Positions 2,090 to 54,930 of a stretch of DNA of 64,000 bases are shown piece after piece. A program made the translations under genes and the position numbers. The notes under the pieces were generated by a model. It was not told the origin of the DNA and searched no databases. It was given only the letters and a program-made list of their open reading frames with translations. This DNA comes from Patescibacteria group bacterium. Lineage in GTDB: Bacteria; Patescibacteriota; Patescibacteriia; Patescibacteriales; UBA12465. The stretch spans positions 8,986 to 72,985 of the forward strand of contig JBAZJV010000006.1 of NCBI GenBank assembly GCA_041651095.1. The letters run 5' to 3'. Each line of letters begins with the position of its first letter. Position 1 is the first letter of the stretch.

Positions 2090-2133
2090 TTTGGTTGCGC
2101 CCGGTTAAAAAATAGGAATTTCGTGTTTCAAAA

Positions 2134-2158: not shown

Positions 2159-2250
2159 ATTTTATAATTTTAAGATTCCAGTCCCGCCTTTATACGCAAA
2201 ATCGCGTATTTTAGATATTTTTAGCTAAAAACAAACAAAAAATTAATATT

Positions 2251-2310: not shown

Positions 2311-2316
2311 GAAAAT

Positions 2317-2589: not shown

Positions 2590-2590
2590 T

Positions 2591-3022: not shown

Positions 3023-3032
3023 ATTGAGCACC

Positions 3033-3060
3033 AAAAAGACCCCAATTGAGGAGTCTTTTT
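3033..3060. terminator. bidirectional hairpin terminator candidate
   Basis: An imperfect AGACCCC...GAGGAGTCT stem with A5 before and T5 after, between the convergent doc gene and tRNA-Glu. Confidence 0.45.
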
Positions 3061-3066
3061 ATTTTG

Positions 3067-3138
3067 TAGTCCCTAGGGGAATCGAACCCCTCTTACCAGG
3101 ATGAGAACCTGGCGTCCTAGCCGATAGACGAAGGGACC
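3067..3138 (-). tRNA. tRNA-Glu (anticodon CUC)
   Basis: The reverse complement folds as a cloverleaf: acceptor GGTCCCT/AGGGACT, anticodon stem CCAGG/CCTGG, loop TTCTCAT, T-arm AGGGG-TTCGATT-CCCCT. No encoded CCA. Confidence 0.85.
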
Positions 3139-3176
3139 ATCAATTATCCGTATTTATGCTTAATTCGTATCTATGC

Positions 3177-4136
3177 TTAGTGCAGTATCTGGCCGATCAA
3201 AGCGCTATGGCCGCGCTTAAATTCTTCCGCCGAGAGCGGCTTGCCGCCGGCCATTTGTAATCTTAATATACTGAGCGCCGCTTGTCCACACTGGACCAGT
3301 AATTTCCCGTCGCTCAGGAACATTTCTCCGATTTGATGATTGGCGCTGCCGATTGGTTCGCGCTCGACGGACAAGATTTTCAATGATTTACCGTCCGGGG
3401 AAACCGTATAACTGCCCGGCCAGGGATCATAAGCGCGAACTTGGCGCTCTATCTCTATTGCCGGTTTCGACCAATCAATGCGGCCGTCCGTTTTATTCAG
3501 GATTTTTACGTAACTGGCTCGGCTTTCATCCTGCGCTTGCGGCTTGATCTTCCCCTGGACGAAGTCCTTAATGGTTGGAATCAACTCCTTAGCGCCGAGC
3601 TCGGCTAGCCGGTCATGCAGGTCGGACAGGGTTTCGCGGCCGGATAATTTTATCTTAGCTTGCCGTAAAATCGGGCCGGTGTCAAGGCCGGCGTCTATTT
3701 GCATAATCGTCACGCCGGTTTCGGCGTCACCGTTCAAGATCGGCGCGTTCAGGCAGCTGGCCCCGCGGTATTTCGGCAAGAGCGAAGCATGGACGTTCAG
3801 GCAGCCGTATTCGGGAATAGTTAATATTTCCGGCGGGATTATTTTGCCGTAAGCGATGACGATGATCAGATCTGGTTGCAGGTCTCGGATAGCCTGGGTA
3901 GCCGTCTTAATCTTAGCCGGCTGGAAAACCGGGATCTGGTGCTGCTCGGCCAATCGTTTTATCGGCGGCGGAGTAAGGGCTTGTCGCCGGCCGACCGGCT
4001 TATCGGCCTGAGTAAAAACGGCGGCCAGTTCAAAAGACGGCTCATCCAAGAGAGCTTGCAAGCCGGGGCAGGCGAATTCCGGCGTGCCCATGAAAATCAG
4101 GCGTAACTTTTTATCGGCGAGGCGCGTTGATGGCAT
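3177..4136 (-). CDS. fmt: methionyl-tRNA formyltransferase
   Basis: 319 aa. The N-terminus reads RLIFMGTPEFA. The motifs NVHASLLPKYRGA and PIxxG are present, together with the C-terminal Fmt domain. Confidence 0.9.
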   Translation of the reverse strand: MPSTRLADKKLRLIFMGTPEFACPGLQALLDEPSFELAAVFTQADKPVGRRQALTPPPIKRLAEQHQIPVFQPAKIKTATQAIRDLQPDLIIVIAYGKIIPPEILTIPEYGCLNVHASLLPKYRGASCLNAPILNGDAETGVTIMQIDAGLDTGPILRQAKIKLSGRETLSDLHDRLAELGAKELIPTIKDFVQGKIKPQAQDESRASYVKILNKTDGRIDWSKPAIEIERQVRAYDPWPGSYTVSPDGKSLKILSVEREPIGSANHQIGEMFLSDGKLLVQCGQAALSILRLQMAGGKPLSAEEFKRGHSALIGQILH

Positions 4137-31972: not shown

Positions 31973-32769
31973 CCCTGCCCTGGATAATTATCACCCTTGC
32001 TTTAATCGTTATCTTGTCCATCCTGGTCAAGAAGTTTCCGGCGCTCGCCCTGCTTAACGTTTCCAGTTTGCCGGGCGAGAAAGAAGCCAAGTTCAAGGAA
32101 GAGATAATCAAGACGCGAGTGAGCCGCGATCTGGCGCTCGTGAGCGGATTTTTCGGCCGTTTTTGGCTTTGGTTTTATAAGAAATTGTCCGGTTTATTGA
32201 AAGAGCGACAGGCGCAGCTGAAGAAGGTGCGGGCCAATCACCTGGCCAATATAAAAATGCCTTGGCGGGAGAAGCAGCAGAAGATCAGGGAGCTCGCCGT
32301 CGCCGCCCAGGAAGCCATCAAGAAAGAGGACGAAGACGTTTCCGAAGAAAAGCTGCTGGAAATAGTTAGCTTGGATCAGAAGAACCGCGAAGCTTTCTTC
32401 GCTTTAGGCAATCTGTATGCCAGCCAGCGGAAATGGCCGGAAGCGCGCGAAACTTATGAGTACACCCTGAAGCTGGTGCGCCAACCCAAGATCGAAGGCG
32501 AAGCGCCGAGCGACCTCACGCCGCAGGCCGTCTATTTCGCCCTGGCCAACCTGGCCAAGGACACCGATGATCCGGACGCCGCCCTGGAAAATATCCGCGA
32601 GGCCCTGGAACTGGAGCCGAACAACCCGCGTTATCTTGATTTAATTTTGGATTTAAGTATAATGAGGAAAGATAAGGCTCTGGCCCAAGAGTCTTTGGCC
32701 AAATTAGCCGCCGTTAACCCGGAGAATCAGAAGCTGGGGGAGTGGCAGGAAAAGATCGCCAATTTATAG
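31963..32769 (+). CDS. TPR-repeat protein with an N-terminal membrane anchor
   Basis: N-terminal TM segment (WIIITLALIVILSILV). The C-terminal TPR-like helices include FALGNLYASQRKWPEARETYEYTLKL and ALENIREALELEPNNP. Confidence 0.6.
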   Translation: MPVALPWIIITLALIVILSILVKKFPALALLNVSSLPGEKEAKFKEEIIKTRVSRDLALVSGFFGRFWLWFYKKLSGLLKERQAQLKKVRANHLANIKMPWREKQQKIRELAVAAQEAIKKEDEDVSEEKLLEIVSLDQKNREAFFALGNLYASQRKWPEARETYEYTLKLVRQPKIEGEAPSDLTPQAVYFALANLAKDTDDPDAALENIREALELEPNNPRYLDLILDLSIMRKDKALAQESLAKLAAVNPENQKLGEWQEKIANL

Positions 32770-32771
32770 TT

Positions 32772-32847
32772 GCCGTTGTAGCTCAGCTGGTAGAGCATCT
32801 CCATGGTAAGGAGAAGGTCACCGGTTCAATCCCGGTCAACGGCTCCA
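32772..32847 (+). tRNA. tRNA-Thr (anticodon GGU), CCA encoded
   Basis: Acceptor GCCGTTG/CAACGGC, anticodon arm TCTCC-ATGGTAA-GGAGA, T-arm ACCGG-TTCAATC-CCGGT, then T-CCA. Confidence 0.9.
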
Positions 32848-32854
32848 TTTTTCG

Positions 32855-32879
32855 AAACACTATTTAAATAGTGTTTTTT
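32855..32879 (+). terminator. hairpin terminator after tRNA-Thr
   Basis: Perfect palindrome AAACACTATTT/AAATAGTGTTT followed by a T-run. Confidence 0.6.
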
Positions 32880-32924
32880 ATTTTATTAAATTTAGCTAAT
32901 ATCAGTAATTATTAACCTAAAACA

Positions 32925-32953
32925 TTGACAAAAATTAAAAAATAATGTATAAT
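32925..32953 (+). promoter_or_regulatory. consensus sigma70 promoter (TTGACA-17-TATAAT, TG-extended)
   Basis: TTGACA at 32925-32930, 17-nt spacer, TG at 32946-32947, TATAAT at 32948-32953. It is near-identical to 8110-8139. Confidence 0.6.
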
Positions 32954-33057
32954 GTCCTATTACATAATGAGACTCTGGATGCCCTGGCAAAAGGAGTTAT
33001 TTAACAATTGAAAACAACAAAAACAAAAATAAACCGGTCGAGGAGGACCAAAAAACA

Positions 33058-33723
33058 ATGGCTACTTCAATAATTGATTTCTTGAAACAATTTGGCATGC
33101 ATCAAGCCTTGGAGCATGCCATTAAATCCGTCTTTGACTTAGGGATGGAAAAAGTTAAAGAAGGCTTGAAAGCTAGAAATTTCGGCTTAGGCGTAAATGA
33201 TGAGCTTTTGTTCTTATCAGCTTGTTATATTGCCCAGTCTGAGTTGAACGTTTCCAGCGAAGGCATCTTATTAGTATGTCGAGCGCTTGACACACTCGCT
33301 CCTGGCGACAGGAAAAGGGTCGTCAGGATGATCGGTTCTGATGAACAGGAAAGGAATATAAAAGAACCGGCTACCGACAAATCGAGCGGAGCGCCTTTGT
33401 CTGATAAAAAGGGTAACCCATTGTATAAGGAAACAAAAATAATCGAAAATACCAGAGGTGCCCAAATAGTCAAAATGCTTGCGGATTTGAACGATATTGA
33501 AAAAATCGTTTTAGTATTCAAATCAGTCGGCGCAGACGGCCAATCATTCAATTGGGCTGAAAAAATTCTCGAAGTTAGTAAAAACGCTGTTTCGAAAGTA
33601 AAATCAAGCAATATCGTGCAAGGTATTAAGAACAATACGGAGCTTTCCTTATCTAGCTTGGAACAAGCCCTGAATAATTCTGCTCATCCAGTCAGGGATT
33701 TAATTAACTTACTTGTAAAATAA
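33058..33723 (+). CDS. hypothetical soluble 221-aa protein
   Basis: Strong SD GAGGAGGA 10 nt upstream. The gene is A/T-richer than the backbone. No family recognised. Confidence 0.55.
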   Translation: MATSIIDFLKQFGMHQALEHAIKSVFDLGMEKVKEGLKARNFGLGVNDELLFLSACYIAQSELNVSSEGILLVCRALDTLAPGDRKRVVRMIGSDEQERNIKEPATDKSSGAPLSDKKGNPLYKETKIIENTRGAQIVKMLADLNDIEKIVLVFKSVGADGQSFNWAEKILEVSKNAVSKVKSSNIVQGIKNNTELSLSSLEQALNNSAHPVRDLINLLVK

Positions 33724-33740
33724 AGATTTGGGAGATAAAA

Positions 33741-34979
33741 ATGTATTGGATAATTGGTGTAACAATCGTTTTGTTGGCCGTTGTTCGACCCACCCTATTA
33801 GTTGCTCTTTTTAATTATATAAGAAGAGCGGTTCAAGACGTGACCGGTATACTCTTACCAATATTACCGGTCTATGCCATAGGGACCCTGGCCGTTATAA
33901 TATGGCTGACAGTATTAATTATTTTAGGGGCGCTGATTAACTCCCCGGTTATTACTGGAATTTGTTTTTTGTTGTCCATCCTATTATTCTATCTGGTATT
34001 CCTTATACCGGGTTTCGTGCTTAAGATAATAGGTGTGAATGAAAGGATATTCCCATTAGCTGTTAGGACTGCTGCCGCTTGGCTGGCTTTCTTCGGTTTT
34101 TTAGGCATGTTATATTCAGATATCTTAAATATTGAATTCCTAATAGCTTTAAGTCTATTAGGCTTCATAAGTTTAGGAGTCGCCTCCAAGGCCAATTTTC
34201 TGAAATCTGTGATTTATCCATTAGTCATAGTTATGTGCGTTATCGCCGTTTGGAAATATGCCGCGCCAGATAATTTTCGGGCTATTACCAGAAATATCAG
34301 CGCTACCGGTAAGCAGATAAATTCCTCCGCCGATAGAAATAGTCTGGGCAAAGAAGCTGATGCTGCTGTAACCTATGCCTATCTTAATCGCAGCGTCTCA
34401 GTTGTTTATACAGCGGTCATTAATCAGGATGACGATGGAAATGATTACATCGCGTCCCTACAGGATGTTACAAAGCATATAAGCGACACCGTTATGGTTA
34501 AAGTATATAACCATAAAGACGAAGTGCTCACTTATCAAGGGCAGGGTTTCGTCATGATCCAGGCACCTAAGACTAACGGATCGTTCGTTAATGCCACACA
34601 ATACTGGATTGAAGCTGATTATTTAAGTTTCTTATCACCAACTGATTTGGCAGCGGAAAGAGAACAAAAAAATAGATCCAAGAGAAACGAAACAGTTTTA
34701 GCATCTCAGAACATAACCACGCCCGCTGTTACCTCTCCGATTCCTAAATTCTATGATGCCATTGGAACTTACCCCCTCGGTGTCGGTAAAGGAGAACAAA
34801 CCGGCTGGATAAACGTCGGTCCATGCCATCGCTACAATTTTTCTTCGAATTCCATTACGCTTAAATATAAAGATCGTGATAGCGTAAACGTCTGGGAAAT
34901 TAAGAAGTTACCAGATGTCTCTACTTTCAGATTAATCAACCGCGGTGATGGTCCCGTCAATCTTTTAGTAAAGTCTTAA
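33741..34979 (+). CDS. hypothetical membrane protein (N-terminal ~5-6 TM segments plus a ~230-aa extracytoplasmic domain)
   Basis: GGGAG lies 6 nt upstream. Residues 1-175 are hydrophobic and the rest is a soluble, beta-rich-looking C-terminal half. No family recognised. Confidence 0.6.
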   Translation: MYWIIGVTIVLLAVVRPTLLVALFNYIRRAVQDVTGILLPILPVYAIGTLAVIIWLTVLIILGALINSPVITGICFLLSILLFYLVFLIPGFVLKIIGVNERIFPLAVRTAAAWLAFFGFLGMLYSDILNIEFLIALSLLGFISLGVASKANFLKSVIYPLVIVMCVIAVWKYAAPDNFRAITRNISATGKQINSSADRNSLGKEADAAVTYAYLNRSVSVVYTAVINQDDDGNDYIASLQDVTKHISDTVMVKVYNHKDEVLTYQGQGFVMIQAPKTNGSFVNATQYWIEADYLSFLSPTDLAAEREQKNRSKRNETVLASQNITTPAVTSPIPKFYDAIGTYPLGVGKGEQTGWINVGPCHRYNFSSNSITLKYKDRDSVNVWEIKKLPDVSTFRLINRGDGPVNLLVKS

Positions 34980-35074: not shown

Positions 35075-35458
35075 ATGAAGCAGCGTTTATTTGCAGCCCT
35101 TATTTTATTAATTATGTTCTGTGCGTTCGTGCCGGTTTTAGCGGCGGATGACGCTCAGACCCCTGCTGTCGGCGATGCCCAGACTTCCTGCCCCGACGGC
35201 GCCTGCACCCTCACTAACCCCCTGGGCATCAGTACACCGCAGGCCTTCATTGGCCGCGTCGTCAACTCCGTCATGGGCCTGGTCGGCTCCATCGCCCTGG
35301 TCATGTTCGTCTATGGCGGCCTGACCTGGATGACTTCTTCGGGCAGCGAGGAGAAGGTCAAGAAGGGGCGCGATATCCTGGTCTGGTCGGCGGTCGGCCT
35401 GGTGGTGGTTTTTATGGCTTACGCGCTAACCCGCTTCGTCCTCAACGTGATCGTCTAA
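35075..35458 (+). CDS. TrbC/VirB2-like (T4SS-pilin-like) small secreted membrane protein
   Basis: 127 aa with a signal peptide and two C-terminal TM helices. The segment GGLTWMTSSGSEEKVKKGRDIL is typical of the pilin-like family abundant in CPR genomes. Confidence 0.6.
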   Translation: MKQRLFAALILLIMFCAFVPVLAADDAQTPAVGDAQTSCPDGACTLTNPLGISTPQAFIGRVVNSVMGLVGSIALVMFVYGGLTWMTSSGSEEKVKKGRDILVWSAVGLVVVFMAYALTRFVLNVIV

Positions 35459-39626: not shown

Positions 39627-40616
39627 TTAAGCCATGATATGCGGCACCAGGTCCGGTTTCAGGATCATGATGAGCAGAGCCATCCTGATGAACAATCCGT
39701 TTTGCGCCTGGATGAAATAATAGGCGCGCGGATCCGAGTCTACATATTTAGGAATTTCTCGCCCTCTGGGCAATGGGTGCATTATTATAGCTTCGGGCGA
39801 CAACATATCCAGGACTTCGTGATTAATGCTGAATAGTCCGGGCTTTCTTTCGGCCGGGGTCATTGAACTGCCGCGTTCGGTTTGGATCCTGGTCATATAG
39901 ACCACGTCCACTTTGCCGGCGACTTTTTTGATATCGTCGACTTCCCAATATTTGATGCCGCGGCGATCAAGATATTCTTTGATATCATCGCCCATTCTTA
40001 GAGACGGCGGAGCCACGAAATAGATCTTAACGCCTTTGAATTTTCCCAGCAGATAAGATAAAGATCTTACGGTCCGGCCGTTGTCTAAGTCGCCGACCAT
40101 AGCGATCCTTATGCCGTTTATCCGTCCGAACCGCTTATATATAGTATATATGTCTAGTAAGGCTTGGGTCGGATGCTGGTTGTTGCCGTCACCGGCGTTA
40201 ATTATCGGTATCTGGGCAACTCGGGCAGCTTTCTCGGCATGTTTGGCACGGGCAAATCTTCCGGCTAAGACATCAGCATAATAACCGTTCCAGATTTTTA
40301 TCGTATCGGTTATTGATTCGCCTTTCGCCCGGGAAGAAAATTGCATGGCATTTTCCGTGGAAAAGCTGACTTGACCGCCCAACAAATTCATCGCTTGGGC
40401 AAAAGAGCCATGTGTCCTGGTGCTGGATTCCTCAAACCAGTTGATGAGCCGTTTATTGTGGAGATAAGTGCAGTTTCTAATTTCCGCTAGCGTCGGCATC
40501 GCGTCGGCTAATGGGAAAATATAATTAAACAGTGTGTCTAAATCGAATTGCTGGGCCTGAATGATGTGCGACAGGCTCCGGCTGTTGTCATACAGCGGAA
40601 TAAGATTTTTTTTCAT
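39627..40616 (-). CDS. pyrB: aspartate carbamoyltransferase catalytic-chain-like protein
   Basis: STRTHGSF (the STRTR motif with R to H), SSRAKGES, HPTQALLD, GDLDNGRTVRS, MTRIQTER and HPLPRGREI all fit ATCase. Strong SD GGAGGAG. Confidence 0.7.
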   Translation of the reverse strand: MKKNLIPLYDNSRSLSHIIQAQQFDLDTLFNYIFPLADAMPTLAEIRNCTYLHNKRLINWFEESSTRTHGSFAQAMNLLGGQVSFSTENAMQFSSRAKGESITDTIKIWNGYYADVLAGRFARAKHAEKAARVAQIPIINAGDGNNQHPTQALLDIYTIYKRFGRINGIRIAMVGDLDNGRTVRSLSYLLGKFKGVKIYFVAPPSLRMGDDIKEYLDRRGIKYWEVDDIKKVAGKVDVVYMTRIQTERGSSMTPAERKPGLFSINHEVLDMLSPEAIIMHPLPRGREIPKYVDSDPRAYYFIQAQNGLFIRMALLIMILKPDLVPHIMA

Positions 40617-40699
40617 GTGACTCCTCCGTTTGGGATGTTGGGTTTTTAGTGATTATTTAAGAACAAATTGTTAATTTACTGGTTACAAGCATTTTTTCG

Positions 40700-40729
40700 A
40701 TTCTATCATGAAATCTATAAGATAGTAAA
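40700..40729 (-). promoter_or_regulatory. promoter candidate for the ATCase-like gene
   Basis: The minus strand reads TTTACT (40729-40724), 18-nt spacer, TAGAAT (40705-40700), preceded by TG. Confidence 0.4.
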
Positions 40730-40948
40730 GTGGTCGGCCGGCGTCTTGCCGCCGGGCGTCGGCTATCCCGATATTCCCTTGGTAGGGCCGTCAATTAATT
40801 TCATTTTTGTCCAATTTATGTGCTATAATTAAATTATCATTACCAGCCGCTGCCAGCATTGAAAGGTCGGTCCGCTACAGCTTAAATATTATTAGGTTTA
40901 TATAATAAGCACCCGCCTTCGCCTCTGGCTGCGGCGGAGCTAAAAACT

Positions 40949-41335
40949 ATGAAGATTTTAATCATCGACGATGAGATCAGCGCCGCCACTACGCTCAAAG
41001 CCTTGCTCATGAGCCAGGACGGCATGGAAATCGATATCGCCTATAACGGCCGGGAAGGACTGGCTAAAATGAAAGAAGCTCAGCCGCCCTATGACCTCTT
41101 GATTTTGGACGTGATGATGCCGGATTTCAGCGGTCTGGACGTCTGCAAAGCTATGCACGCGGATGAACAGTTGAAGAATACGCCGATTATCCTGGATTCG
41201 GCTCTGCCGATAGCTTCCAAGGAACTGCAAGGATTGCTCAACGAATTCCAGGCGCTCAACCCGATCAAGGGCGTGCTGGAAAAACCTTTCGTGCTGGAGG
41301 ATTTGTTAGCGGCCATCAAGGCCGCCAGGGCGTAG
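40949..41335 (+). CDS. stand-alone response-regulator receiver protein (CheY-like, no output domain)
   Basis: 128 aa. Carries IIDDE, LILDVMMP (phospho-acceptor Asp context), DSA and EKPF. Confidence 0.8.
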   Translation: MKILIIDDEISAATTLKALLMSQDGMEIDIAYNGREGLAKMKEAQPPYDLLILDVMMPDFSGLDVCKAMHADEQLKNTPIILDSALPIASKELQGLLNEFQALNPIKGVLEKPFVLEDLLAAIKAARA

Positions 41336-41363
41336 TTTTTAATGGCAGTATTTTAATATTTAT

Positions 41364-42413
41364 ATGAAAAAAATTATTATCGTGCTCGGCCTTCTGGCCG
41401 TAGCGGTCATCCTGACCTGGTGGCTCAATGTCAAGTTGACGCCTACGCCGCCGTCCACTCAGGAGAAGAATCCGCTGGTTATCGGTTTTTCCCTGGGGAC
41501 GATCCGGGAAGAGCGCTGGTTTACCGATCGCGATTTTTTCAAGCAGCGGGCCGAGGAATTGGGCGCCGCCGTCAGCGTCACGATGTCCGATTACGACGTC
41601 GCTTTGCAGATTTCCCAGATTCAGAACATGATCAGCCAAGGGATCAAGGTGATCGTGGTCATCCCGTCGGACTCGGAAAAGATCGCCCCGATCATCGAAG
41701 AGGCGCATCGGGCCGGCGTGCGGGTCATCGCCTACGATCGGCTGATCAAGGACGCGGACATCGATCTTTATTTGTCTTTTGACAACATCAGGGTCGGCGA
41801 GCTGGAAGCGCAGAGTATCGTTAGCGTCAAAGACCGCGGCAATTTCGCTTATATCGGCGGTTCACCGACGGACAATAATGCTTTTTTACTCCGGGAAGGA
41901 ACCATGTCGGTCCTGGAGCCCTTAATCACAAACGGCCAGATCAGTCTGGTGGTTAACCAGCTGACGGAAGGCTGGAAGCCGGACGAAGCTTATAAGACTA
42001 TCAAGAATTATCTGGCGACCGGGCAACCTTTGGACGCGGTCGTTGCCGCTAACGACGGTACGGCTTTCGGCGTTATCCAGGCCCTGAAAGAGCGGGGTTT
42101 GGCCGGCAAAGTGCCGGTTTCCGGCCAGGACGCCGAACTCTCCGCCTGCCAGCGAATAGTTGACGGCACGCAGACAGCCACGGTCTACAAGCCGATCAAG
42201 CAATTAGCCTATCGCGCGGCTGAGATCGCCGTGGCTATGGCTGAAGGTCATGAACCGGATGTCAATAATACTACCGACAACGGTAAAGTTCAAGTGCTCT
42301 CATATTTTCTCGACCCGATCCTGGTCACTAAGGAGAACATGATGACTACCGTCGTGGCCGACGGCTTCCATGCCGCCGATGAAATCTATCGCGGCCAGGC
42401 GAACCAGCCGTAG
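41364..42413 (+). CDS. membrane-anchored D-xylose-binding-protein-like (XylF family) periplasmic binding protein
   Basis: N-terminal TM anchor. AYDRLIKDADIDLYLSFDNIRVGELEA, GGSPTDNNA, VSGQDAEL and GTQTATVYKPI closely track XylF motifs as I recall them. Confidence 0.8.
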   Translation: MKKIIIVLGLLAVAVILTWWLNVKLTPTPPSTQEKNPLVIGFSLGTIREERWFTDRDFFKQRAEELGAAVSVTMSDYDVALQISQIQNMISQGIKVIVVIPSDSEKIAPIIEEAHRAGVRVIAYDRLIKDADIDLYLSFDNIRVGELEAQSIVSVKDRGNFAYIGGSPTDNNAFLLREGTMSVLEPLITNGQISLVVNQLTEGWKPDEAYKTIKNYLATGQPLDAVVAANDGTAFGVIQALKERGLAGKVPVSGQDAELSACQRIVDGTQTATVYKPIKQLAYRAAEIAVAMAEGHEPDVNNTTDNGKVQVLSYFLDPILVTKENMMTTVVADGFHAADEIYRGQANQP

Positions 42414-42419
42414 CGGCTT

Positions 42420-44405
42420 ATGCACAAAAGCATCCGGCTTAAATTATTTACGGCCTTTCTGACGATTATCGCGGTTTTTACCATCGTCGAAGGTTTTTTT
42501 ATTGCCATCAACTTCAATATCGTCAAGCGCTATCAGGGCTTGACCGATATCATGGTTTCCGAATACCGCCTGATCGGCACGACGGCTGACCTGATCGAAT
42601 CTTTTAAGAGCTTTATCAAATACACCGGCGACGACCAGAAGCGGCAGGACTTTCTGAATACGCGCGGCGATCTGCGCGGCCTGCTCGTCAAGATCGATTC
42701 GGCTATCGTCGATACGGACAGCCGGGTCGCTTTTACCGGCCTGCGTAATACGATCACCAAAATCATTGCGGAAGTGGACAGCGGCCTGGCGGAAGCGACC
42801 AGGGGCGACTACTCGCAGACGACCATCCGTTACGATAATGCCAACCGCCTCAATAGCTTCGTCAAGGATAATACCACCAGCCTGCTGCTGTTCCAATTGG
42901 CTTATGCCAAATCCTTGGAGGCGGAAATCGGGCAGATCCAAATTTGGAGCGAAATCGTCGCGCTACTGATGTTTCTGGTCGCGGCGGCCGGTTCGCTCTG
43001 GTACGCGATTAGCTTTTCCAATAAGATCGTGGCCCCCTTGATCGGCCTGACCAGGCTGGCCAAGGCGATCGAAGGCGGCGACCTGAAAGCGGTCGTCGGC
43101 AAAGAGATCCTTATCGGCGACGACGAAGTGGCGAGCCTGGCCAACTCTTTCAACATGATGGTCTTTTCCTTGCGCCAGAGCATCAAGAAGCTGCAGTCCT
43201 ATAATCTGGAGATCAAGGATTCCCGGAACCGGCTGAAGGCGGAGAAGAATAAGCTGCAGCAGTATCTGGATATCGCCGGCGTCATCGTCATGATTTTTTC
43301 GCCCCACACTAACAACGTTTTCTTGGTCAACAAGAAAGGGCGGGAGCTTTTGGGCATCGAAGCCGGCGAGATCATGGGCAAGGATTGGGTCGGACTTTTC
43401 GTTTCGGCTAATACTCGGCTCAAGACCAAGGCTTTTTTAAATTTACTTATTTCCGGCGCGACGCCGCCGGAAAATACGCTGGAAAACGTCCTGATCACTA
43501 AGGATAACAAGCAGAAAAATCTGGTCTGGCATTTCAGCCTTTTGAAAAACGAGAGCGGCGCGCCGCAGGCCGTCCTGGCGACCGGCGTGGACGTGACCGA
43601 ACTTACCGCCGCCAAGGTGACCATCAATCAACTGAAAGAACTGGACCGCTTGAAGAACGAAGTGATGAATATCGCCACGCACGAATTGAAGACGCCGCTC
43701 ATTTCCATCGTCGGCTTGTCCGAGGTCATGGAGAAGAAGCCGGAAGCCTTGCCGCCGGATTACCGCAACTATGTTTCGATCATCCATCAGGAAGGCGTCA
43801 AGCTGACCAATCTGATCAAATCTATGCTCTCGGCCAGCCGGAACGAATTGGGCAAGATCACGGTGGTCAAAGAAAAATTCGACCTGGCCGAACTGGCGCG
43901 GTCGCTCCAGACCTCTTTGTCAATTCTGGTCAAGCGGACCGATTCGCAGGTCGCTTTCGATATCCAGGGTGAGGGATTCGCCATGGAAAGCGATCGGGCC
44001 AAGATTTCCCAGGTCATTTATAATTTCGTGGATAACGCCGTCAAATACGGCCCCCGCCAGCAGACAATCAAGATCGCTTTATCCAAGCTCGATGCCCATA
44101 CCGCCAAGGTGGCCGTGACCGGTGCCGGCGAAGGCATTTCGGAGGAAGACCAAAAGAAATTATTTTTGAAATTTTCCCAATTGGAACCCTCGCTGTCCCG
44201 CTCCCAGGACGGCATGGGTCTGGGGTTATATATCTGTAAGCAGAACATCGAGAATTTAGGCGGCCAGATCGGCGTCTTCAGCCAACCGAAGCAGGGAGCG
44301 ACTTTTTATTTCACTTTACCGCTGGCGGCCTCAGCCGACGCCAAACCGGCGGCCGCGCCGGGGCGGAAAGGCCGGAACGATGCTCGAACGGTTAAAAAAG
44401 ATTAA
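42420..44405 (+). CDS. sensor histidine kinase (2 TM, extracytoplasmic domain, HAMP, PAS, HisKA, HATPase)
   Basis: H-box ATHELKTPL and G-box GMGLGLYICK. A HAMP-like segment follows TM2, and a PAS-like region spans about residues 290-400. Confidence 0.85.
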   Translation: MHKSIRLKLFTAFLTIIAVFTIVEGFFIAINFNIVKRYQGLTDIMVSEYRLIGTTADLIESFKSFIKYTGDDQKRQDFLNTRGDLRGLLVKIDSAIVDTDSRVAFTGLRNTITKIIAEVDSGLAEATRGDYSQTTIRYDNANRLNSFVKDNTTSLLLFQLAYAKSLEAEIGQIQIWSEIVALLMFLVAAAGSLWYAISFSNKIVAPLIGLTRLAKAIEGGDLKAVVGKEILIGDDEVASLANSFNMMVFSLRQSIKKLQSYNLEIKDSRNRLKAEKNKLQQYLDIAGVIVMIFSPHTNNVFLVNKKGRELLGIEAGEIMGKDWVGLFVSANTRLKTKAFLNLLISGATPPENTLENVLITKDNKQKNLVWHFSLLKNESGAPQAVLATGVDVTELTAAKVTINQLKELDRLKNEVMNIATHELKTPLISIVGLSEVMEKKPEALPPDYRNYVSIIHQEGVKLTNLIKSMLSASRNELGKITVVKEKFDLAELARSLQTSLSILVKRTDSQVAFDIQGEGFAMESDRAKISQVIYNFVDNAVKYGPRQQTIKIALSKLDAHTAKVAVTGAGEGISEEDQKKLFLKFSQLEPSLSRSQDGMGLGLYICKQNIENLGGQIGVFSQPKQGATFYFTLPLAASADAKPAAAPGRKGRNDARTVKKD

Positions 44406-44415
44406 TTATAAAAAT

Positions 44416-44811
44416 ATGAAAATTTTGATCGTGGACAATGACCTCGGCACGGTCACGACGCTCAAAGCGCTGCTCTTGGATCAGGCGGATTTCCAGATCG
44501 ATACCGCCGCCGGCGGCCAGGAAGGACTGGACAAGATGTCCGCCCATCCGGATTACGACTTGGTTATCCTCGATATCATGATGCCGAAGGTAAGCGGCAT
44601 GGATGTCTGCCAGGCGATGGTCAAAGATTGGAAGCTGCGGGACATTCCGGTTCTGCTGATGTCTTCCGCTTTGCCGATCCCGCCCGAGGAATTTCACAAT
44701 TCCCTGGAAAAATTCAGCGGCCTGAGCGTGGTCAAGGGCGTCCTGGAAAAGCCCTTCGTCATCCCGGACCTCCTGGCGCAGATCCGTCAGGTCGCCCGGA
44801 AGCCGCTTTAA
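44416..44811 (+). CDS. stand-alone response-regulator receiver protein, paralog of 40949..41335
   Basis: Carries IVDND, VILDIMMP, MSSA and EKPF. It is collinear with the first receiver along its whole length. ATG 44416 is chosen (ORF track 44380 overlaps the kinase). Confidence 0.8.
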   Translation: MKILIVDNDLGTVTTLKALLLDQADFQIDTAAGGQEGLDKMSAHPDYDLVILDIMMPKVSGMDVCQAMVKDWKLRDIPVLLMSSALPIPPEEFHNSLEKFSGLSVVKGVLEKPFVIPDLLAQIRQVARKPL

Positions 44812-44833: not shown

Positions 44834-44866
44834 AAAAAAAGGCTCTTTGTCGAGCCTTTTATTTTT
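44834..44866. terminator. bidirectional hairpin terminator
   Basis: A7, then AAAGGCTC-tttgtc-GAGCCTTT, then a T-run. It lies between convergent genes. Confidence 0.65.
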
Positions 44867-44884
44867 TACTGCTTATTACATTTT

Positions 44885-46146: not shown

Positions 46147-46734
46147 ATGCTGGAAGCTAAAAATGCCGCCAAGGTCAGCGACGAAGAACTGATCGGCCTG
46201 ATTCTCCAGGATCAGGACAATTTTTTATATTTGGTCGATCGCTATAAGCACCGTCTGCTCAGCTATATCCGCCGCCTGACTAACGTCAATAATGAAGATG
46301 CCGAAGACATCCTGCAGGAAGTGTTCATCAAGATCTATCTCAACTTGAACGATTTCAACCGGGATCTTAAATTTTCTTCCTGGGCCTACCGCATCACGCA
46401 TAATCAGGTGATCAGCCGCCATCGTAAATTGCAGGCGCGACCGGAAGGGCACGCGGTCAATATCGAGGACCAGGCCGCCCGGCGGCTGGCGGCGGAAATC
46501 GATATCGCCGCCGCCGCCGATTTGCAGCTGTTGAAAGATCATACGGCGCGAATCCTGGCGCAGCTGGACGCCAAATACCGGGAAATCCTGATCCTTAAAT
46601 TCTGGGAAGAGAAGAATTACCAGGAGATTTCCGATATCATCGAGAAGCCGCCGGGCACGGTCGCCTCCACCCTTAATAAGGCTAAGCAGGAGTTCAAGAA
46701 AGAATTAGCCAGACAGCAATTAAATCTTAATTAA
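46147..46734 (+). CDS. RNA polymerase sigma-70 family (ECF-type) sigma factor
   Basis: 195 aa. Region 2 reads AEDILQEVFIKIY...FSSWAYRITHN. The region 4 HTH reads NYQEISDIIEKPPGTVASTLNKA. Confidence 0.8.
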   Translation: MLEAKNAAKVSDEELIGLILQDQDNFLYLVDRYKHRLLSYIRRLTNVNNEDAEDILQEVFIKIYLNLNDFNRDLKFSSWAYRITHNQVISRHRKLQARPEGHAVNIEDQAARRLAAEIDIAAAADLQLLKDHTARILAQLDAKYREILILKFWEEKNYQEISDIIEKPPGTVASTLNKAKQEFKKELARQQLNLN

Positions 46735-46735
46735 T

Positions 46736-47518
46736 ATGTCCGTCACCAATCAAGACAACGATTTCGACCGGAAACTGGTCGCCAAAATAAAAGCCGAAAA
46801 GATCTCGCCCAAGCCGCGCTGGCATTTTCTCTTGAAGGATTCGGTCATCTGGGCCGCCGGCACGTTCTCGCTGCTGGTCGGCGCCGGCGCGGTTTCCGTG
46901 CTGATTTATTTTTTCAAATACAGCGGCTGGGAAATGCGCGAAGCGATGCATAAGAGCTGGGGGGAATTTTTCTTGCTGACCCTGCCTTACTTCTGGATCA
47001 TTTTTCTCGGCCTCTTCGTCTTTATCCTGTATTATAATCTGCAGCACACGAAGCACGGCTACCGTTATCCGGTCTGGTTCATCATTTCTTCTTCCGTCCT
47101 GTCCAGCGTCATCCTGGGCGGTATCTTTTTCCTGGCCGGCCTGGGCGAACGCATAGACAACCTGCTCGGCGTCCAGGCGCCTTTCTACAATACGGTCATT
47201 AACCGTCATTTAGATTTCTGGTTCAATCCGGCGGAAGGTCGGCTGGTCGGCATAGTCACGGACAAGAACGACGATAATTCTTTCACGATCATCGATCCAT
47301 CCGGCAATGAATGGCTGGTTTCCGCCGACTCCTGCGCCAGTTCCATGTTTTTGCTGCATCTGCGCGAACCGGTGGATATCATCGGGCAGGTGACGGATGA
47401 CCATCGTTTCGCGGCGCGCAGAATCAAGCCCGGCCATCCGGGACGCAGCTTCCTGTCCCGACCGAGGCCGCGGCCTAGCCGGACGAACTTGCCACCCTTG
47501 CTCTTACCCAGTCCTTAA
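46736..47518 (+). CDS. membrane protein, anti-sigma-factor candidate by position only
   Basis: The ATG lies 1 nt after the sigma-factor stop. About 4 TM segments plus an extracytoplasmic C-terminal domain. No recognisable ZAS motif. Confidence 0.4.
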   Translation: MSVTNQDNDFDRKLVAKIKAEKISPKPRWHFLLKDSVIWAAGTFSLLVGAGAVSVLIYFFKYSGWEMREAMHKSWGEFFLLTLPYFWIIFLGLFVFILYYNLQHTKHGYRYPVWFIISSSVLSSVILGGIFFLAGLGERIDNLLGVQAPFYNTVINRHLDFWFNPAEGRLVGIVTDKNDDNSFTIIDPSGNEWLVSADSCASSMFLLHLREPVDIIGQVTDDHRFAARRIKPGHPGRSFLSRPRPRPSRTNLPPLLLPSP

Positions 47519-50237: not shown

Positions 50238-50966
50238 ATGGTTAGCCAAGAACATCGGAAAAACGTGATCGCCATCAAGTTGGAAGACGCCCGCAAGTCT
50301 TATTATCTGTCAAATGACGAAGAGATCCCGGTTCTAAACGGCGTCGATCTGAGTATCAGGTCGGGTGAATTCGTGGCGATCATGGGCGAATCCGGCGGCG
50401 GCAAGACGACTCTGCTTAACATCATCGGTTGTCTGCATCCTTTGACGGCCGGGCAATATTTTCTGGACGGCGAAGACATTGGGGCGGTTCAGGATGATTT
50501 TACCCTGGCGTTCATCAGGAATAAGAAAATGGGTTTCGTCTTCCAGCAGTTTAACCTGTTCATGCGCTTTTCCGCCCTGAAGAACGTGGCCTTGCCGGCG
50601 CTTTACGCCGGCGTACCGACCACCGTTCGGGAAGAGAAGGCTAAAGCTTTACTGGAATCCGTCGGCCTGGGCGATCGCCTGTTGCATCGGCCGACCGAGC
50701 TCTCCGGCGGCCAGCAGCAGCGCGTAGCCATTTGCCGGGCGCTCATCAACGATCCGGAAATTATCCTGGCGGACGAACCGACCGGCGCCCTGGACTCCAA
50801 GTCCGGCCTGGAAGTTATGGAAATTTTCACCAAGTTCAAGCAGCAGGGGCGAACCGTCGTGATGGTGACGCATACCGCCGAGGTCGCCAAATATGCCGAC
50901 CGGATTATCTATTTGCGCGACGGCCGGGTCTTGGATCATGATTATAAGCTGCATAGCCACTATTAA
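50238..50966 (+). CDS. ABC transporter ATP-binding protein (MacB/LolD type)
   Basis: Walker [10 protein letters not shown], signature [11 protein letters not shown], Walker [12 protein letters not shown]. Confidence 0.9.
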
Positions 50967-50967
50967 T

Positions 50968-52167
50968 ATGACTTGGGAGATCATTAAAATGGCTTTTGAA
51001 TCGCTGATGGCCAAGAAAACCCGGACTTTCCTGTCTATGTTGGGCGTGATTATCGGCGTGGCTACGGTCATCGCCGTCTTCGCCGTCGGACAGGGAGCGC
51101 AGAATTCGGTGAACGCCCAATTCCAGAACCTGAGCGTCAATTCCATTATTATCATGCCGAACCGCGGCCGAGGGTTTACCAGCAGCTCCCGCCTGGCGAC
51201 CGCCGACGCCCAGGTGATCCTGAACAAGTCGGAAAATATTGTTTCCGCGACCGGCGCTATTCAGGGGCAGGCGTCCGTTTCTTACGGCTCGGTGGACAAG
51301 AATTACAGCGTGGTCGGCGTCGATCAGAATTATTTTATGATTTCCAACCTGCGTCTCGCCAGCGGCCGGGCAATAACCGAAGCGGACATCAAGGATAAGG
51401 CCATGGTGGCCGTTATCGGCAGCACGGCCGTTTCCGATCTTTATGAATCCGGGTCAGATCCGTTAAATACCATGATCACGGTCGCCGGCAAGAAGCTAGC
51501 CGTCATCGGCGTGCTTCAGCCGGTCGGTTCCCGCATCGGTCCCTTGTCCATTGATTCCGCGGTCATCGTGCCGAGCACGACCGCCGAAAAGAGCCTCTTG
51601 GGCACGCGCGGAGAAGTGATGATCACCGCCCAGGTCGACGATGTCGCTAATACTTCGGCCGCCACTACCAGCATCACCAGCGCCTTAAGGACCGAACATA
51701 AGCTGAGCCTCAGCCAGGCGGATGATTTCCGGATTTTGGATGCCGGCAGCATGGTCGCCGCCGCCCAGGAATCAGCCAACACCCTGACCGCGCTCCTGAC
51801 CGCCATCGCGGCCATCACCTTGCTCGTTTCCGGCATCGGCATCATGAACGTGATGTTCGTGATCGTTTCCGAGCGGACCAAGGAAATCGGCATCGCCAAA
51901 GCGATCGGCGGCAAGCAGGCCGATATCTTGAGCCAGTTTTTATTGGAGTCAATCATCTTGTCGGTTATCGGCGGCCTCGTCGGCATGCTCATCGGCCAGG
52001 TCGCGATTCCGGTCATTTCCTACTTCAACTGGATTGCCGTGGGCAGCTCCGCCACCGGGCCGATCCTGGGCTTTTCTTTTTCGGTTCTGGTCGGCGTTTT
52101 TTTCGGATTTTATCCGGCCTATAAGGCCAGCCGTTTGGATCCCGTGGATGCTTTGCGCAGCGAATAG
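50968..52167 (+). CDS. ABC transporter permease (FtsX/MacB-type)
   Basis: The N-terminus reads ESLMAKKTRTFLSMLGVIIGV. A large periplasmic loop is followed by the C-terminal FtsX helices. ATG 50968 follows the upstream stop. Confidence 0.85.
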   Translation: MTWEIIKMAFESLMAKKTRTFLSMLGVIIGVATVIAVFAVGQGAQNSVNAQFQNLSVNSIIIMPNRGRGFTSSSRLATADAQVILNKSENIVSATGAIQGQASVSYGSVDKNYSVVGVDQNYFMISNLRLASGRAITEADIKDKAMVAVIGSTAVSDLYESGSDPLNTMITVAGKKLAVIGVLQPVGSRIGPLSIDSAVIVPSTTAEKSLLGTRGEVMITAQVDDVANTSAATTSITSALRTEHKLSLSQADDFRILDAGSMVAAAQESANTLTALLTAIAAITLLVSGIGIMNVMFVIVSERTKEIGIAKAIGGKQADILSQFLLESIILSVIGGLVGMLIGQVAIPVISYFNWIAVGSSATGPILGFSFSVLVGVFFGFYPAYKASRLDPVDALRSE

Positions 52168-52825: not shown

Positions 52826-54658
52826 ATGGATAAGCAACAAAAAATCATTGTTCCCATTCGGGGCATGCACTGCCGGTCTTGTGAAATTCTGATCGAAGAC
52901 GAACTAACCGCGCTTAAAGGCGTCCAACGAGCCGAAGCGGATTGGCGGCGCAGCCAGGTGGCATTGCAGTTTTCCGGCCAGCAGCCGGATGAGGGCCAAA
53001 TTAGGGAAGCCATACGCCGAGCCGGCTATGAAGTGGGTGAAAACGGTAAAACCGGATTTTTCAGCCGTAATAAGGAAGACTATAAGGATTTAGGACTGGC
53101 TTTCCTGGCTTTGCTCGGGATTTATCTTATTCTGAAGGGTTTGGGCATCAGCAGTATTAATATCAACACCTCTAACGACCTGACGGTCCCCGTCATTCTC
53201 TTGATCGGTTTGACCGCCGGCTTCTCAACCTGCATGGCCCTGGTCGGCGGCTTGATCCTGGGCGTGTCGGCCCGTTATACGGAAAGCCGTCCCGAGGCGA
53301 CGTCCGGAGAAAAATTTTATCCGCATCTGCTCTTTAATTCCGGCCGAGTCATCGGCTTCGCCGTTTTGGGCGGGATTCTAGGCTTGGTCGGATCAGCGTT
53401 CCAGTTGTCCGGATCGGTGCTGGGTTTTATTACCATTGCCGCCGGCTTGCTGATGCTGGTTATGGGTTTGCAGCTGACCAATATTTTCCCCTGGTTGGAA
53501 CGATTCAAACTTACTCTGCCCAAAGGGCTCAGCCGTTATCTGGGCTGGTCTAAGAGCCGGCAATCTTATAGCCATAATAACGCTTTCATTCTGGGCGCTT
53601 TGACCTTTTTCCTGCCTTGCGGCTTTACTCAGGCCATGCAGATTTATGCCGTCAGCACCGGCAGCTTTCTGGATGGCGCCGTTGTCATGGGCGCTTTTGC
53701 CCTCGGTACGATGCCGGGTCTGCTGGGCATCGGCGGCCTGACGGCCTCGGTCAAAGGACTGTTTGCCCAACGCTTCTTCAAGTTCGCCGGTCTGGCCGTC
53801 ATTTCCTTCGCCTTCTTCAATATCGCCAACGGCCTGGCGCTCAGCGGCTTCAGTCCGGCTTACGGTTCAGCGGCTCCAGCCGTCTCGACCGATCCTAATG
53901 TCACTATGGAAAACGGCGTACAGGTCGTCCGGATGACGGAAACCGCTTCCGGTTATCAGCCCAATAGTTTTACGATTAAGAAAGGCCGGCCGGTGCGCTG
54001 GGTCATTGACGCGCGGGATCCATATTCTTGCGCCTCCACCATCTTGTTGAATAAATATGGAATCCGTAAAAATCTGCGCGCCGGTGAAAATGTCATTACT
54101 TTCACGCCGACCGAGGCCGGCCGCCTGCCTTTTTCCTGTTCCATGGGTATGTATACCGGCGTCTTTAACGTGATCGAGGACGATAATCCGGCCGCGGGCA
54201 TAATCAGTCCGGCTTTGGCCGCGGCCTCTGAAATCGCCGCGCCGGCGCCTGGCGGCGCTTGCCGGGTCGGCGGTTGCGGCGGCTCCGGTTCCGGCGGCTG
54301 CGGTTGCGGCGGCAATCGGGAATTTATTCCGAGCGCCGGTCCGGTCGCGACGGCTCCGGACGAAGAAGCCGGTCCGGGCGCGGCCGTTCAGAATATTACC
54401 AGCGTTTATACGGTTAATGACGATATCGTGCCCAATACTTTTACCGTCAAAGCCGGCCGGCCGGTCCATTATAGTGTAGACGTCCGGGAAACCGCTTACG
54501 GCTGCATGTCGGAAATTATGATCCAGAATTTATATGATCAGTCCATTCCGCTCGTTGCCGGTGAACCGTTGGCCATGGATTTTACCCCATCACAGCCCGG
54601 TACTTATCTGATCACTTGCGCTATGGGCGTACCGCGAGGCAAGATCATCGTGGAATAG
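52826..54658 (+). CDS. fusion protein: HMA domain + TauE/DsbD_2-like membrane domain + two cupredoxin-like domains
   Basis: The N-terminus has GMHCRSCE. About 6-8 TM segments carry FLPCGFTQAMQ. A Gly/Cys linker reads CRVGGCGGSGSGGCGCGG. Two C-terminal repeats (FTIKKGRPVRW...FSCSMGMY and FTVKAGRPVHY...ITCAMGV) follow. Confidence 0.7.
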   Translation: MDKQQKIIVPIRGMHCRSCEILIEDELTALKGVQRAEADWRRSQVALQFSGQQPDEGQIREAIRRAGYEVGENGKTGFFSRNKEDYKDLGLAFLALLGIYLILKGLGISSININTSNDLTVPVILLIGLTAGFSTCMALVGGLILGVSARYTESRPEATSGEKFYPHLLFNSGRVIGFAVLGGILGLVGSAFQLSGSVLGFITIAAGLLMLVMGLQLTNIFPWLERFKLTLPKGLSRYLGWSKSRQSYSHNNAFILGALTFFLPCGFTQAMQIYAVSTGSFLDGAVVMGAFALGTMPGLLGIGGLTASVKGLFAQRFFKFAGLAVISFAFFNIANGLALSGFSPAYGSAAPAVSTDPNVTMENGVQVVRMTETASGYQPNSFTIKKGRPVRWVIDARDPYSCASTILLNKYGIRKNLRAGENVITFTPTEAGRLPFSCSMGMYTGVFNVIEDDNPAAGIISPALAAASEIAAPAPGGACRVGGCGGSGSGGCGCGGNREFIPSAGPVATAPDEEAGPGAAVQNITSVYTVNDDIVPNTFTVKAGRPVHYSVDVRETAYGCMSEIMIQNLYDQSIPLVAGEPLAMDFTPSQPGTYLITCAMGVPRGKIIVE

Positions 54659-54707
54659 GGAGCATCGTTCGCATCTTATTAATTATAACCACTTAATCAT
54701 TATTTTT

Positions 54708-54917
54708 ATGAAGACTCAATTCAAGATAAACGGCTTGACCTGTGCCGCCTGCGAAAAGCTAAGCGCTAAACGTCTGGCCAAAATCAACGGCGTGACCGGC
54801 GTCCAGGTCAGCCGGGACAGCGGCGTAGCCGATATTGAAGCGGATCGTCCGATTACGCTCACGGAAGCAAGCGCCGCTCTGTCCGGCACGGATTACCGGG
54901 CCGCGGCGCTCCATTGA
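54708..54917 (+). CDS. copZ: copper chaperone CopZ-like HMA protein
   Basis: 69 aa with GLTCAACE. Confidence 0.8.
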
Positions 54918-54930
54918 TATTTATTCATAT

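Follow-up and report, generated by a model that had tools for sequence, protein, structure and literature searches.

A probable binding-protein-dependent two-component sugar sensor with two receiver-only proteins in a Patescibacteria bacterium

Binding proteins are known to serve as ligand adaptors for the sensors of kinases, with XylFII-LytS, ChvE-VirA, TorT-TorS, LuxP-LuxQ, HptA-HptS and Tar-MBP as described examples, and the genes of such kinase-stimulating binding proteins lie close to signalling genes (PMC8050422). The locus analyzed here is a cassette of four genes at positions 40949-44811 of a 64,000-nucleotide stretch of DNA from a Patescibacteria group bacterium (contig JBAZJV010000006.1; the whole stretch is referred to as the window in the following). 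It encodes, in this order, a receiver protein (REC1), a XylF-like binding protein, a sensor histidine kinase and another receiver protein (REC2). The data presented below make it rather probable that this cassette constitutes a binding-protein-dependent two-component sugar sensor in a bacterium of the Patescibacteria (Candidate Phyla Radiation, CPR). Targeted literature searches yielded no description of this module in CPR bacteria.

Among the described systems XylFII-LytS-YesN from Clostridium beijerinckii (PDB 5XSJ) resembles the cassette most. Both place the gene of a xylose-type Peripla_BP_4 protein beside a kinase gene without an adjacent permease gene, the sensor of the kinase is in both cases (for the window kinase by prediction) a mono-modular four-helix bundle of the LytSN type, and the expected mechanism, in which the loaded binding protein reshapes the sensor dimer, would be shared as well (PMC8050422). 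Unlike XylFII, however, the binding protein of the window belongs to the XylF lineage and carries a hydrophobic anchor, and the core of the window kinase is of the HAMP-PAS-HisKA type (PF00512). LytS kinases, by comparison, have a core of the LytS/YesM His_kinase class. Furthermore, two receiver-only proteins take the place of YesN, which combines a REC with an AraC-type domain, and no xylFGH genes are found beside the cassette, whereas the arrangement of the Bacillota sits upstream of xylFGH. As the lineage of the binding protein, the class of the kinase and the type of regulator all differ, the cassette has to be placed outside the XylFII-LytS-YesN family.

All four genes are encoded on the forward strand. 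REC1 (40949..41335, 128 aa) is covered over its whole length by the Response_reg model (E 1.4e-17). It is followed by the XylF-like D-xylose-binding protein (41364..42413, 349 aa; Peripla_BP_4, E 1.8e-62), by the sensor histidine kinase (42420..44405, 661 aa), which comprises a first transmembrane helix (TM1), the four-helix-bundle sensor, TM2, HAMP, PAS, HisKA and HATPase_c, and by REC2 (44416..44811, 131 aa; Response_reg, E 4.5e-15). The order and the sizes of the receivers and the kinase had been given likewise in a preliminary description of this DNA and agree with the open reading frames (ORFs) as well as with the Pfam and NCBIfam assignments. This includes the 131 aa of REC2: the mechanically called ORF starts at 44380 (143 aa) and would overlap the kinase gene, but gene calls for an identical contig and an ortholog alignment favour the start at 44416. 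The intergenic gaps within the cassette measure only 28, 6 and 10 nt. A terminator-like hairpin followed by a T-run (44837..44870, forward strand; 9-bp stem, ATTTTTTACT tail), recognized by pattern match only, sits between REC2 and a convergent gene for a PRPP (phosphoribosyl pyrophosphate)-synthetase-like protein, and judged by sequence the four genes look like one operon closed by this hairpin. At the other end, an intergenic region of 332 bp (40617..40948) separates REC1 from a divergently oriented carbamoyltransferase-like gene (39627-40616, reverse strand). This gap presumably contains the promoter of the cassette; a single sigma-70-like match at 40682-40709 upstream of REC1 was weak and not above shuffled expectation.

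The preliminary assignment of the binding protein to the XylF family was borne out, since, next to the Peripla_BP_4 match, the best named NCBIfam family was xylF (TIGR02634; 372.2 bits, E 2.3e-111, match 1-301 of 302). The next-best NCBIfam model, ChvE, reached 233 bits, and the models for RbsB, LsrB and MglB scored the protein 5-16 times below XylF. The curated equivalog cutoff of TIGR02634 (389.55 bits) was missed by 17 bits, and as this shortfall is so small the protein has to be regarded as very close to the transport XylFs, with which it shares 47-50% identity; in a PDB sequence search E. coli XylF (3M9W) was matched with an E of 1e-91 and an identity of ~50%. XylFII, on the other hand, which had been named as a precedent, was absent from the 60 best PDB matches (E<=1e-5), and compared with 309 bits for E. 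coli XylF only 20-36 bits were obtained with XylFII-like proteins from Bacillota. Thus, the placement in the XylF family stands, but a placement in the XylFII lineage does not. At the DNA level, E. coli genomes yielded no match to the gene of the binding protein.

In the closed form of E. coli XylF, xylose is hydrogen-bonded by R16, D90, R91, D135, N137, N196, D222 and K242, as listed in a paper that cites the structure (PMC8753852). The equivalent residues of the window protein are R51, D125, R126, D170, N172, N230, D256 and K276, so that all eight contacts from this list are identical. Each of them, and likewise both tryptophans stacking in the pocket, is kept in 118-120 of the 120 closest clade members. 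The pocket is therefore identical to that of E. coli XylF, and the ligand would be D-xylose or a very similar pentopyranose. This supports the guess of a pentose sensor made in the preliminary description, which had named the ligand-contact residues as the point to inspect. With the XylF of the XylFGH importers from E. coli and Bacillota (PDB 3M9W, 3MA0) the protein hence shares 47-50% of its residues, the fold family and the eight hydrogen-bonding residues. It differs from these proteins in that its gene lies between those of a receiver and a kinase, in the absence of xylG and xylH from the 64-kb window, in its membership of a separate clade (see below) and in lacking both a lipobox and a predicted cleavable signal. 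As its score is under the TIGR02634 cutoff and XylGH are missing from the window, it was not counted among the transport XylFs.

The N-terminus of the binding protein consists of two lysines, a hydrophobic stretch of 18 aa (aa 4-21; 41373-41426, forward strand) and a subsequent Pro/Thr linker, and contains no cysteine. A lipobox-like motif was found in merely 2 of 117 clade members as opposed to 39 of 42 XylFs from Bacillota. The protein is probably tethered to the membrane via its uncleaved N-terminal helix, so that the transmembrane anchor proposed earlier is plausible as a prediction.

The N-terminal part of the kinase (residues 1-200) matches no Pfam model, and an exhaustive representative search among 1.84 billion proteins recovered only 181 cluster representatives for its sensor domain. 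A word-indexed homology search with aa 1-207 of the sensor alone gave no match. In an AlphaFold2 (AF2) model, for which the ortholog alignment was used as input, the domain adopts four helices with a pLDDT (predicted local distance difference test) of 89.1: TM1 is continuous with helix 1 and helix 4 with TM2, and the two helices in between are shorter. The model confidently predicts a mono-modular four-helix bundle, and the helical domain which it puts between TM1 and TM2 (aa ~32-176; 42513..42947) corresponds to the extracytoplasmic domain of ~150 aa that had been noted before. When the model was compared to the PDB with Foldseek, the top match was 5XSJ_L (E 1.9e-4, TMt 0.85, rmsd (root-mean-square deviation) 1.9 A), and this was the sole match with E<=1e-3. 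Chain L of 5XSJ is LytSN from the XylFII-LytSN complex. A profile comparison using hhalign is in line with this result, as the sensor aligned end to end (196 columns) with the N-terminal regions of eleven LytS-type kinases from Bacillota at a probability of 95.9% (E 5.8e-9). The latter profile retrieved only LytS (5XSJ) from the PDB, which validates these N-termini as comparison sensors. A hidden Markov model (HMM) of the CPR sensor domain, by itself, produced only chance matches among the PDB sequences, and the relation to LytS must therefore be a remote one. Altogether, LytSN as best fold match and the hhalign result support the sensor, at the level of profile and model, as a remote homologue of LytSN, the only bundle on which a xylose-binding protein is known to dock.

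The other kinases served by binding proteins compare less well. ChvE-VirA, TorT-TorS, LuxP-LuxQ and HptA-HptS share the principle of a periplasmic binding protein as ligand adaptor for a kinase sensor. Yet the sensor of TorS is a bimodular four-helix bundle and those of LuxQ and HptS are dCache-like, folds unlike that of the window sensor; their ligands are different, and ChvE additionally serves a transporter. In the chemoreceptors Tar and Trg, sugar-binding proteins (MBP, RBP, GBP) likewise contact a four-helix-bundle sensor, and the sensor family of the window kinase is also found fused to domains of methyl-accepting chemotaxis proteins (MCPs). Unlike the window protein, however, MBP, RBP and GBP are mainly transport components encoded together with their transporters, and the output runs via CheA and CheY.

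The preliminary description stated that no xylGH genes occur in the window. This holds: a six-frame ORF search of the 64 kb with XylG, XylH, XylA and XylR from E. coli as queries gave only one weak match (62 bits), namely a MacB-type ABC (ATP-binding cassette) ATPase (50238-50966) adjoining an FtsX/MacB permease. Among the remaining long ORFs of the window, Pfam assignments revealed neither a sugar permease nor xylose catabolic genes. The ABC system at 50238-52167 was also considered as a transporter for the binding protein and was rejected, as its MacB_PCD/FtsX permease together with a HlyD-like adaptor upstream is of the efflux type and does not represent a CUT2 importer.

As a comparison across genomes, one genome per species was scanned using the alignment of the clade as query, which gave 80 loci with flanks of 10 kb, whose ORFs were labelled by phmmer (loci are cited by their L numbers). 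A scan of metagenomes contributed 80 further loci, so that the combined set comprises 160 related loci, some of them common to both scans. Within this set 71 loci (22 from genomes, 49 from metagenomes) were sensor-linked, that is, directly after the binding protein they encode a protein with homology to the window kinase over its N-terminal 200 residues. XylG or XylH within 6-10 kb was found at none of the 22 and none of the 49 sensor-linked loci. Of the 80 metagenome loci, in addition to the 49 sensor-linked ones, ~15 were xylGH-linked and 10 were cut at a contig end. The Bacillota present a different picture: ~55 of their genome loci carry xylF-xylG-xylH, and upstream of these genes there is often a set encoding a distant binding protein together with a kinase and a REC-AraC regulator (XylFII-LytS-YesN, validated against 5XSJ). 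For most of the Bacillota XylFs which these scans recovered, xylG and xylH come immediately afterwards. A neighbour-joining tree placed 21 of the 22 sensor-linked binding proteins from genomes in one clade, apart from the 42 xylG-linked proteins included.

Nearly all sensor-linked loci belong to metagenome-assembled genomes labelled as Patescibacteria or DPANN, or to unlabelled metagenome contigs. The labels of the 22 genome loci comprise Patescibacteria, Falkowbacteria, Paceibacterota, Saccharimonadales and Roizmanbacteria as well as one Desulfocapsaceae, and some of the labels are doubtful. With 71 sensor-linked loci the cassette is a widespread module of the Patescibacteria and no peculiarity of this genome. 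Loci of the CPR type were also seen under non-CPR labels, either 'uncultured Gammaproteobacteria' (L010, L012, L016, L021) or 'Woesearchaeota' and 'uncultured archaeon' (L019, L020, L023, L086). These labels reflect either mislabelled bins or a genuine spread of the module to DPANN archaea.

Two further observations concern binding proteins in the surroundings of such loci. At three loci a gene for an amino-acid-type binding protein (SBP_bac_3) is located directly upstream of the cassette (L006:6759-7562, L009:8714-9508, L017:9134-9937); the encoded proteins are 59% identical between loci, and this is a second orphan binding protein beside the same kinase. In some Bacillota a XylF-type paralogue, which is not XylFII, directly follows the YesN-like regulator (L062:8663-9712, L071:8651-9724; also L059, L067-L069, L072-L074, L078, L082 and L087). 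The paralogues of L062 and L071 branch beside the sensor-linked clade. As these XylF-type paralogues follow a YesN-like regulator, XylF-type co-sensors may exist in Bacillota, too.

The association of binding protein and sensor extends beyond the kinase. When the 150 top-ranking relatives of the sensor were classified by phmmer and motif searches and by Pfam scans of 10 representatives, they were found to include ~52 kinases (some of them hybrid or with multiple PAS domains), ~5 chemoreceptors and ~70 proteins without a kinase domain. The latter have 300-315 aa and consist of the four-helix-bundle sensor, TM2, HAMP and a coiled coil of ~55 aa with the motif M[VI]xRE[LM]KMxELK. They, too, occur directly after XylF-like binding proteins, for example at L018:1009-1947, L023:11111-12034 and L089:5001-5924, and in the metagenome loci L111, L115, L117, L119, L129, L135-L137 and L164. 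As the same motif sits just before the H-box in PAS-less kinases (P0243), these proteins look like kinases that end before the DHp domain. The binding protein thus remains beside the sensor domain across three kinds of output, histidine kinase, hybrid histidine kinase and kinase-less HAMP protein. Moreover, among 39 distinct pairs the distances of the binding proteins correlated with those of the extracellular sensors (r 0.83) and of the kinase cores (r 0.68), with partial correlations of 0.67 and 0.14, respectively, although common ancestry and the swapping of domains confound such mirror-tree values. They are suggestive of a divergence of the binding protein that tracks the extracellular sensor better than the kinase core. 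Adjacency in 71 loci, the LytSN-like sensor, the pairing across different outputs and this co-divergence jointly argue for the view, already expressed in the preliminary description on the basis of this one locus, that the kinase has the binding protein as its dedicated partner in sensing and that transport is not its role. Separately, L089:3934-8381 was observed to hold tandem pairs, a XylF-like protein with a HAMP protein of 307 aa and then an SBP_bac_1 protein with a HAMP protein of 319 aa, which suggests a general CPR design in which orphan binding proteins are paired with small membrane sensors.

The cytoplasmic part of the kinase contains HAMP (aa 200-253; PF00672, E 1.9e-7) and PAS (aa 291-394; PF13426, E 2.5e-7) domains, together at 43017..43601, followed by HisKA (aa 412-477; PF00512, E 1.7e-11) and HATPase_c (aa 525-636; PF02518, E 9.8e-25) at 43653..44327. 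In total 105 full-length orthologs with identities of 46-77% were collected, of which the named ones originate from Patescibacteria, Falkowbacteria, Saccharimonadales or an unclassified bacterium. The histidine H421 in HisKA (nt 43680-43682), the N-box (DNAVKYG) and the G2-box (GMGLGL) are invariant in all of them. The G1-box (GAGEG) deviates, as its usual Asp is replaced by Gly568 (nt 44121-44123). The G1-box Asp contacts adenine in GHKL ATPases. At this position the orthologs contain Gly in 78, Asn in 18, Ser in 5 and Asp in only 4 of the 105 sequences, and distant PAS-less relatives retain the Asp. Such a conserved loss of the G1 Asp is unusual for a histidine kinase.

REC1 and REC2 are paralogues (54% identity over 125 aa, BLASTP E 4e-45) and form a subfamily of their own, which is characterized by an insertion of 6 aa ('SALPI...') near helix 4. 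REC1 possesses D7, D8, D54, S84 and K112, and these key residues are kept in nine of nine orthologs. REC2 retains D53 as well as the Ser and the Lys. Its acidic pocket (D7-N8-D9; 44434-44442), however, has Asn at the second acidic position, the equivalent of CheY D13, where REC1 has Asp-Asp; this Asn is present in eight of eight orthologs. As the Asp of the G1-box is missing in the kinase and the second acidic residue in REC2, canonical phosphotransfer is not assured. A REC1 gene precedes that of the binding protein in 8 loci from genomes and in no fewer than 11 from metagenomes, and the whole order of receiver, binding protein, kinase and receiver is found in 8 genome and 11 metagenome loci.

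Both receivers consist of a Response_reg domain only and lack an output domain, as had been recognized before. It follows that a response would have to proceed via protein contacts, a further phosphorelay or a phosphate sink, and the earlier wording of an output by protein-protein interaction or sink was the right level of claim. By contrast, ChvE-VirA, TorT-TorS, LuxP-LuxQ and HptA-HptS signal to DNA-binding regulators or hybrid relays. In being receiver-only REC1 and REC2 are comparable to CheY, DivK, Spo0F and the CheY1/CheY2 sink pairs, and two paralogues served by a single kinase are reminiscent of a carrier-plus-sink or branched design. Unlike CheY-type regulators, they contain the 6-aa insertion and, in REC2, the Asn, and with the NCBIfam CheY model, whose cutoff is 189 bits, a REC score of 35 bits was obtained. 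Genes for CheA, MCP, Hpt or flagellar or pilus motor proteins were absent from the Pfam inventory of the window, as was any DNA-binding response regulator among its other long ORFs. Nor did a conserved partner or output gene emerge from the Pfam families of 111 genes that flank 21 related loci; the 25 commonest families contained no DNA-binding regulator, importer permease, BPD_transp_2 or chemotaxis family.

A candidate for an output is located further downstream. An ECF (extracytoplasmic function) sigma factor (46147-46734, forward strand; Sigma70_r2 and r4_2) is tightly adjoined by a multi-pass membrane protein of 260 aa without a Pfam match (46736-47518, forward strand). Pairs of this kind lie on the same strand 0.1-2.7 kb past REC2 in L004/L091, L012, L021, L092 and L099 (L004:12808-14203, L012:14306-15758, L021:13437-14892, the last of which begins 66 nt after REC2), and were not found in the more distant related loci. 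The pair may be an output link or plain synteny, the latter because it is confined to the subclade nearest to the window.

From these results the following mechanism may be drawn. Anchored on the outside of the membrane through its uncleaved N-terminal helix and the flexible Pro/Thr linker, the XylF-like protein would bind D-xylose or a very similar pentopyranose. Instead of feeding a transporter it would dock on the LytS-like four-helix bundle of the kinase, as suggested by the conserved adjacency, by the homology to the solved XylFII-LytSN pair and by the co-divergence. In its ligand-loaded form it would rearrange the sensor dimer, as in XylFII-LytS, and the signal would pass via TM2, HAMP and PAS to HisKA/HATPase. 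The kinase may then set the phosphorylation state of both receivers, with REC1 and its canonical pocket as a putative carrier and REC2, with Asn in its pocket, as a kinetically different branch or sink. Xylose would thereby act as an environmental or host-proximity cue, with genes for its import or catabolism not being located alongside the module.

Several findings weigh against this mechanism. The binding protein is only 17 bits under the xylF equivalog cutoff, and the view is limited to 64 kb of the genome, so that a distant xylGH pair is possible. Four members of the sensor clade are orphans without a kinase nearby; for three of them (L011, L013 and L016) the surrounding 10 kb contain no kinase and no transporter, and L013 (CP066698.1:492749-513780) is part of a complete Falkowbacteria genome of 977 kb. 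The kinase lacks the Asp of its G1-box, REC2 lacks the second acidic residue, the mirror-tree correlations are confounded, and no output gene was found in the window or among the conserved neighbours. The first of these points would fit with a binding protein that serves a CUT2-type ABC permease/ATPase encoded elsewhere, either exclusively or in a dual role, its position beside the kinase then reflecting co-regulation or secondary signalling as for ChvE, MBP and GltB. Dual-role binding proteins are documented (PMC8050422), and the identity of ~50% to bona fide transport XylFs is high. However, XylG and XylH are absent within 6-10 kb at all 71 sensor-linked loci, whereas xylGH directly follow most XylFs of the Bacillota. 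The sensor-linked proteins also form a clade of their own, their tethering has switched from a lipoprotein to a hydrophobic anchor, and the genes of binding proteins which stimulate kinases are situated near signalling genes (PMC8050422). A transport function is thus considered unlikely.

Direct recognition of a small ligand by the four-helix bundle, as known for Tar, PcaY and MCP2201, with a binding protein that has no functional tie to the kinase, is highly improbable. Four-helix bundles that bind ligands do appear at ranks 3rd to 24th of the fold search, and chemoreceptors without a binding protein nearby (L090) contain distant versions of the sensor. Nevertheless, the best fold match is the one such bundle solved in complex with a xylose-binding protein, and the gap of 6 nt between the genes, the adjacency across 71 loci and different output modules and the co-divergence speak against this reading. 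A cassette of the same architecture responding to another ligand, such as a different pentose, a host cell-wall sugar or an AI-2 (autoinducer-2)-like molecule, appears quite unlikely. Peripla_BP_4 also includes LuxP, LsrB, RbsB and ChvE, sugars other than xylose can be docked into E. coli XylF (PMC8753852), and the window holds no genes for xylose metabolism; on the other side stand the low scores of the RbsB, LsrB and MglB models and a pocket in which the eight hydrogen-bonding residues of that same source and both tryptophans are essentially invariant in 120 members. With respect to phosphotransfer, the kinase might mainly serve as a scaffold or phosphatase and REC2 might represent a slow sink or pseudo-receiver, and the receivers might then obtain their phosphate from a different kinase or from acetyl phosphate. 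The near-general replacement of the G1 Asp (Asp in 4 of 105 orthologs), the Asn of REC2 in every ortholog and the extra kinases and receivers near some related loci (L040, L092, L114) would fit such a circuit. It is nonetheless considered improbable, as H-box, N-box and G2-box are invariant down to 46% identity, pointing to a working nucleotide site and phospho-His chemistry, and as REC1 is fully canonical. Even such a circuit would alter the biochemistry only and leave the sensing logic of a binding-protein-dependent sugar sensor intact.

Apart from the cassette, the window contains two divergent ClpB-like AAA+ genes (8819-11458, reverse strand, and 11994-14675, forward strand), a Fic-domain gene (2591-3022), a T4SS (type IV secretion system)-pilin-like gene (35075-35458), a copper-handling cluster composed of an HMA-DsbD_2-cupredoxin protein and a P-type ATPase (52826-57600) and an RND/HlyD efflux set. 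Two stretches (1-4000 and 32001-34000) have a low G + C-content of 42-44% compared to 49-59% in most of the window. To judge from their composition these stretches may be acquired DNA; the second one harbours two ORFs without a Pfam match (33058-33723 and 33741-34979) beside a tRNA-Thr gene (32772-32847).

Almost nothing is known about what Patescibacteria sense. With ~0.29 histidine kinases per 100 genes they possess the fewest of all bacteria surveyed (PMC10805038), and because kinase frequencies in CPR bacteria are reported as the lowest, a widely conserved sensor with a predictable ligand is useful. As the cassette is conserved and both its ligand (xylose) and its docking mechanism can be predicted, it is among the few CPR signalling systems that are directly testable with purified components. 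The conceptual advance is moderate, since binding-protein-stimulated kinases are already well established. Still, the XylFII-LytS design would reach beyond the Bacillota, with a LytS-type bundle joined to another lineage of binding proteins, another class of kinases and receivers without output domain. Whether it amounts to a lineage-wide, transporter-independent perception of xylose in Patescibacteria, possibly in DPANN archaea, too, with a non-canonical circuit of a kinase without the adenine-binding Asp of GHKL proteins, a carrier and an atypical receiver that ends in an ECF sigma factor or a surface or attachment programme, appears doubtful at present. If this were true, the kinase-less proteins of sensor, HAMP and coiled coil would be a second route of signal transmission for the same binding protein, and ultra-small symbionts, which perhaps neither import nor burn xylose, would read it as a cue for the breakdown of plant polymers or for the proximity of a host.

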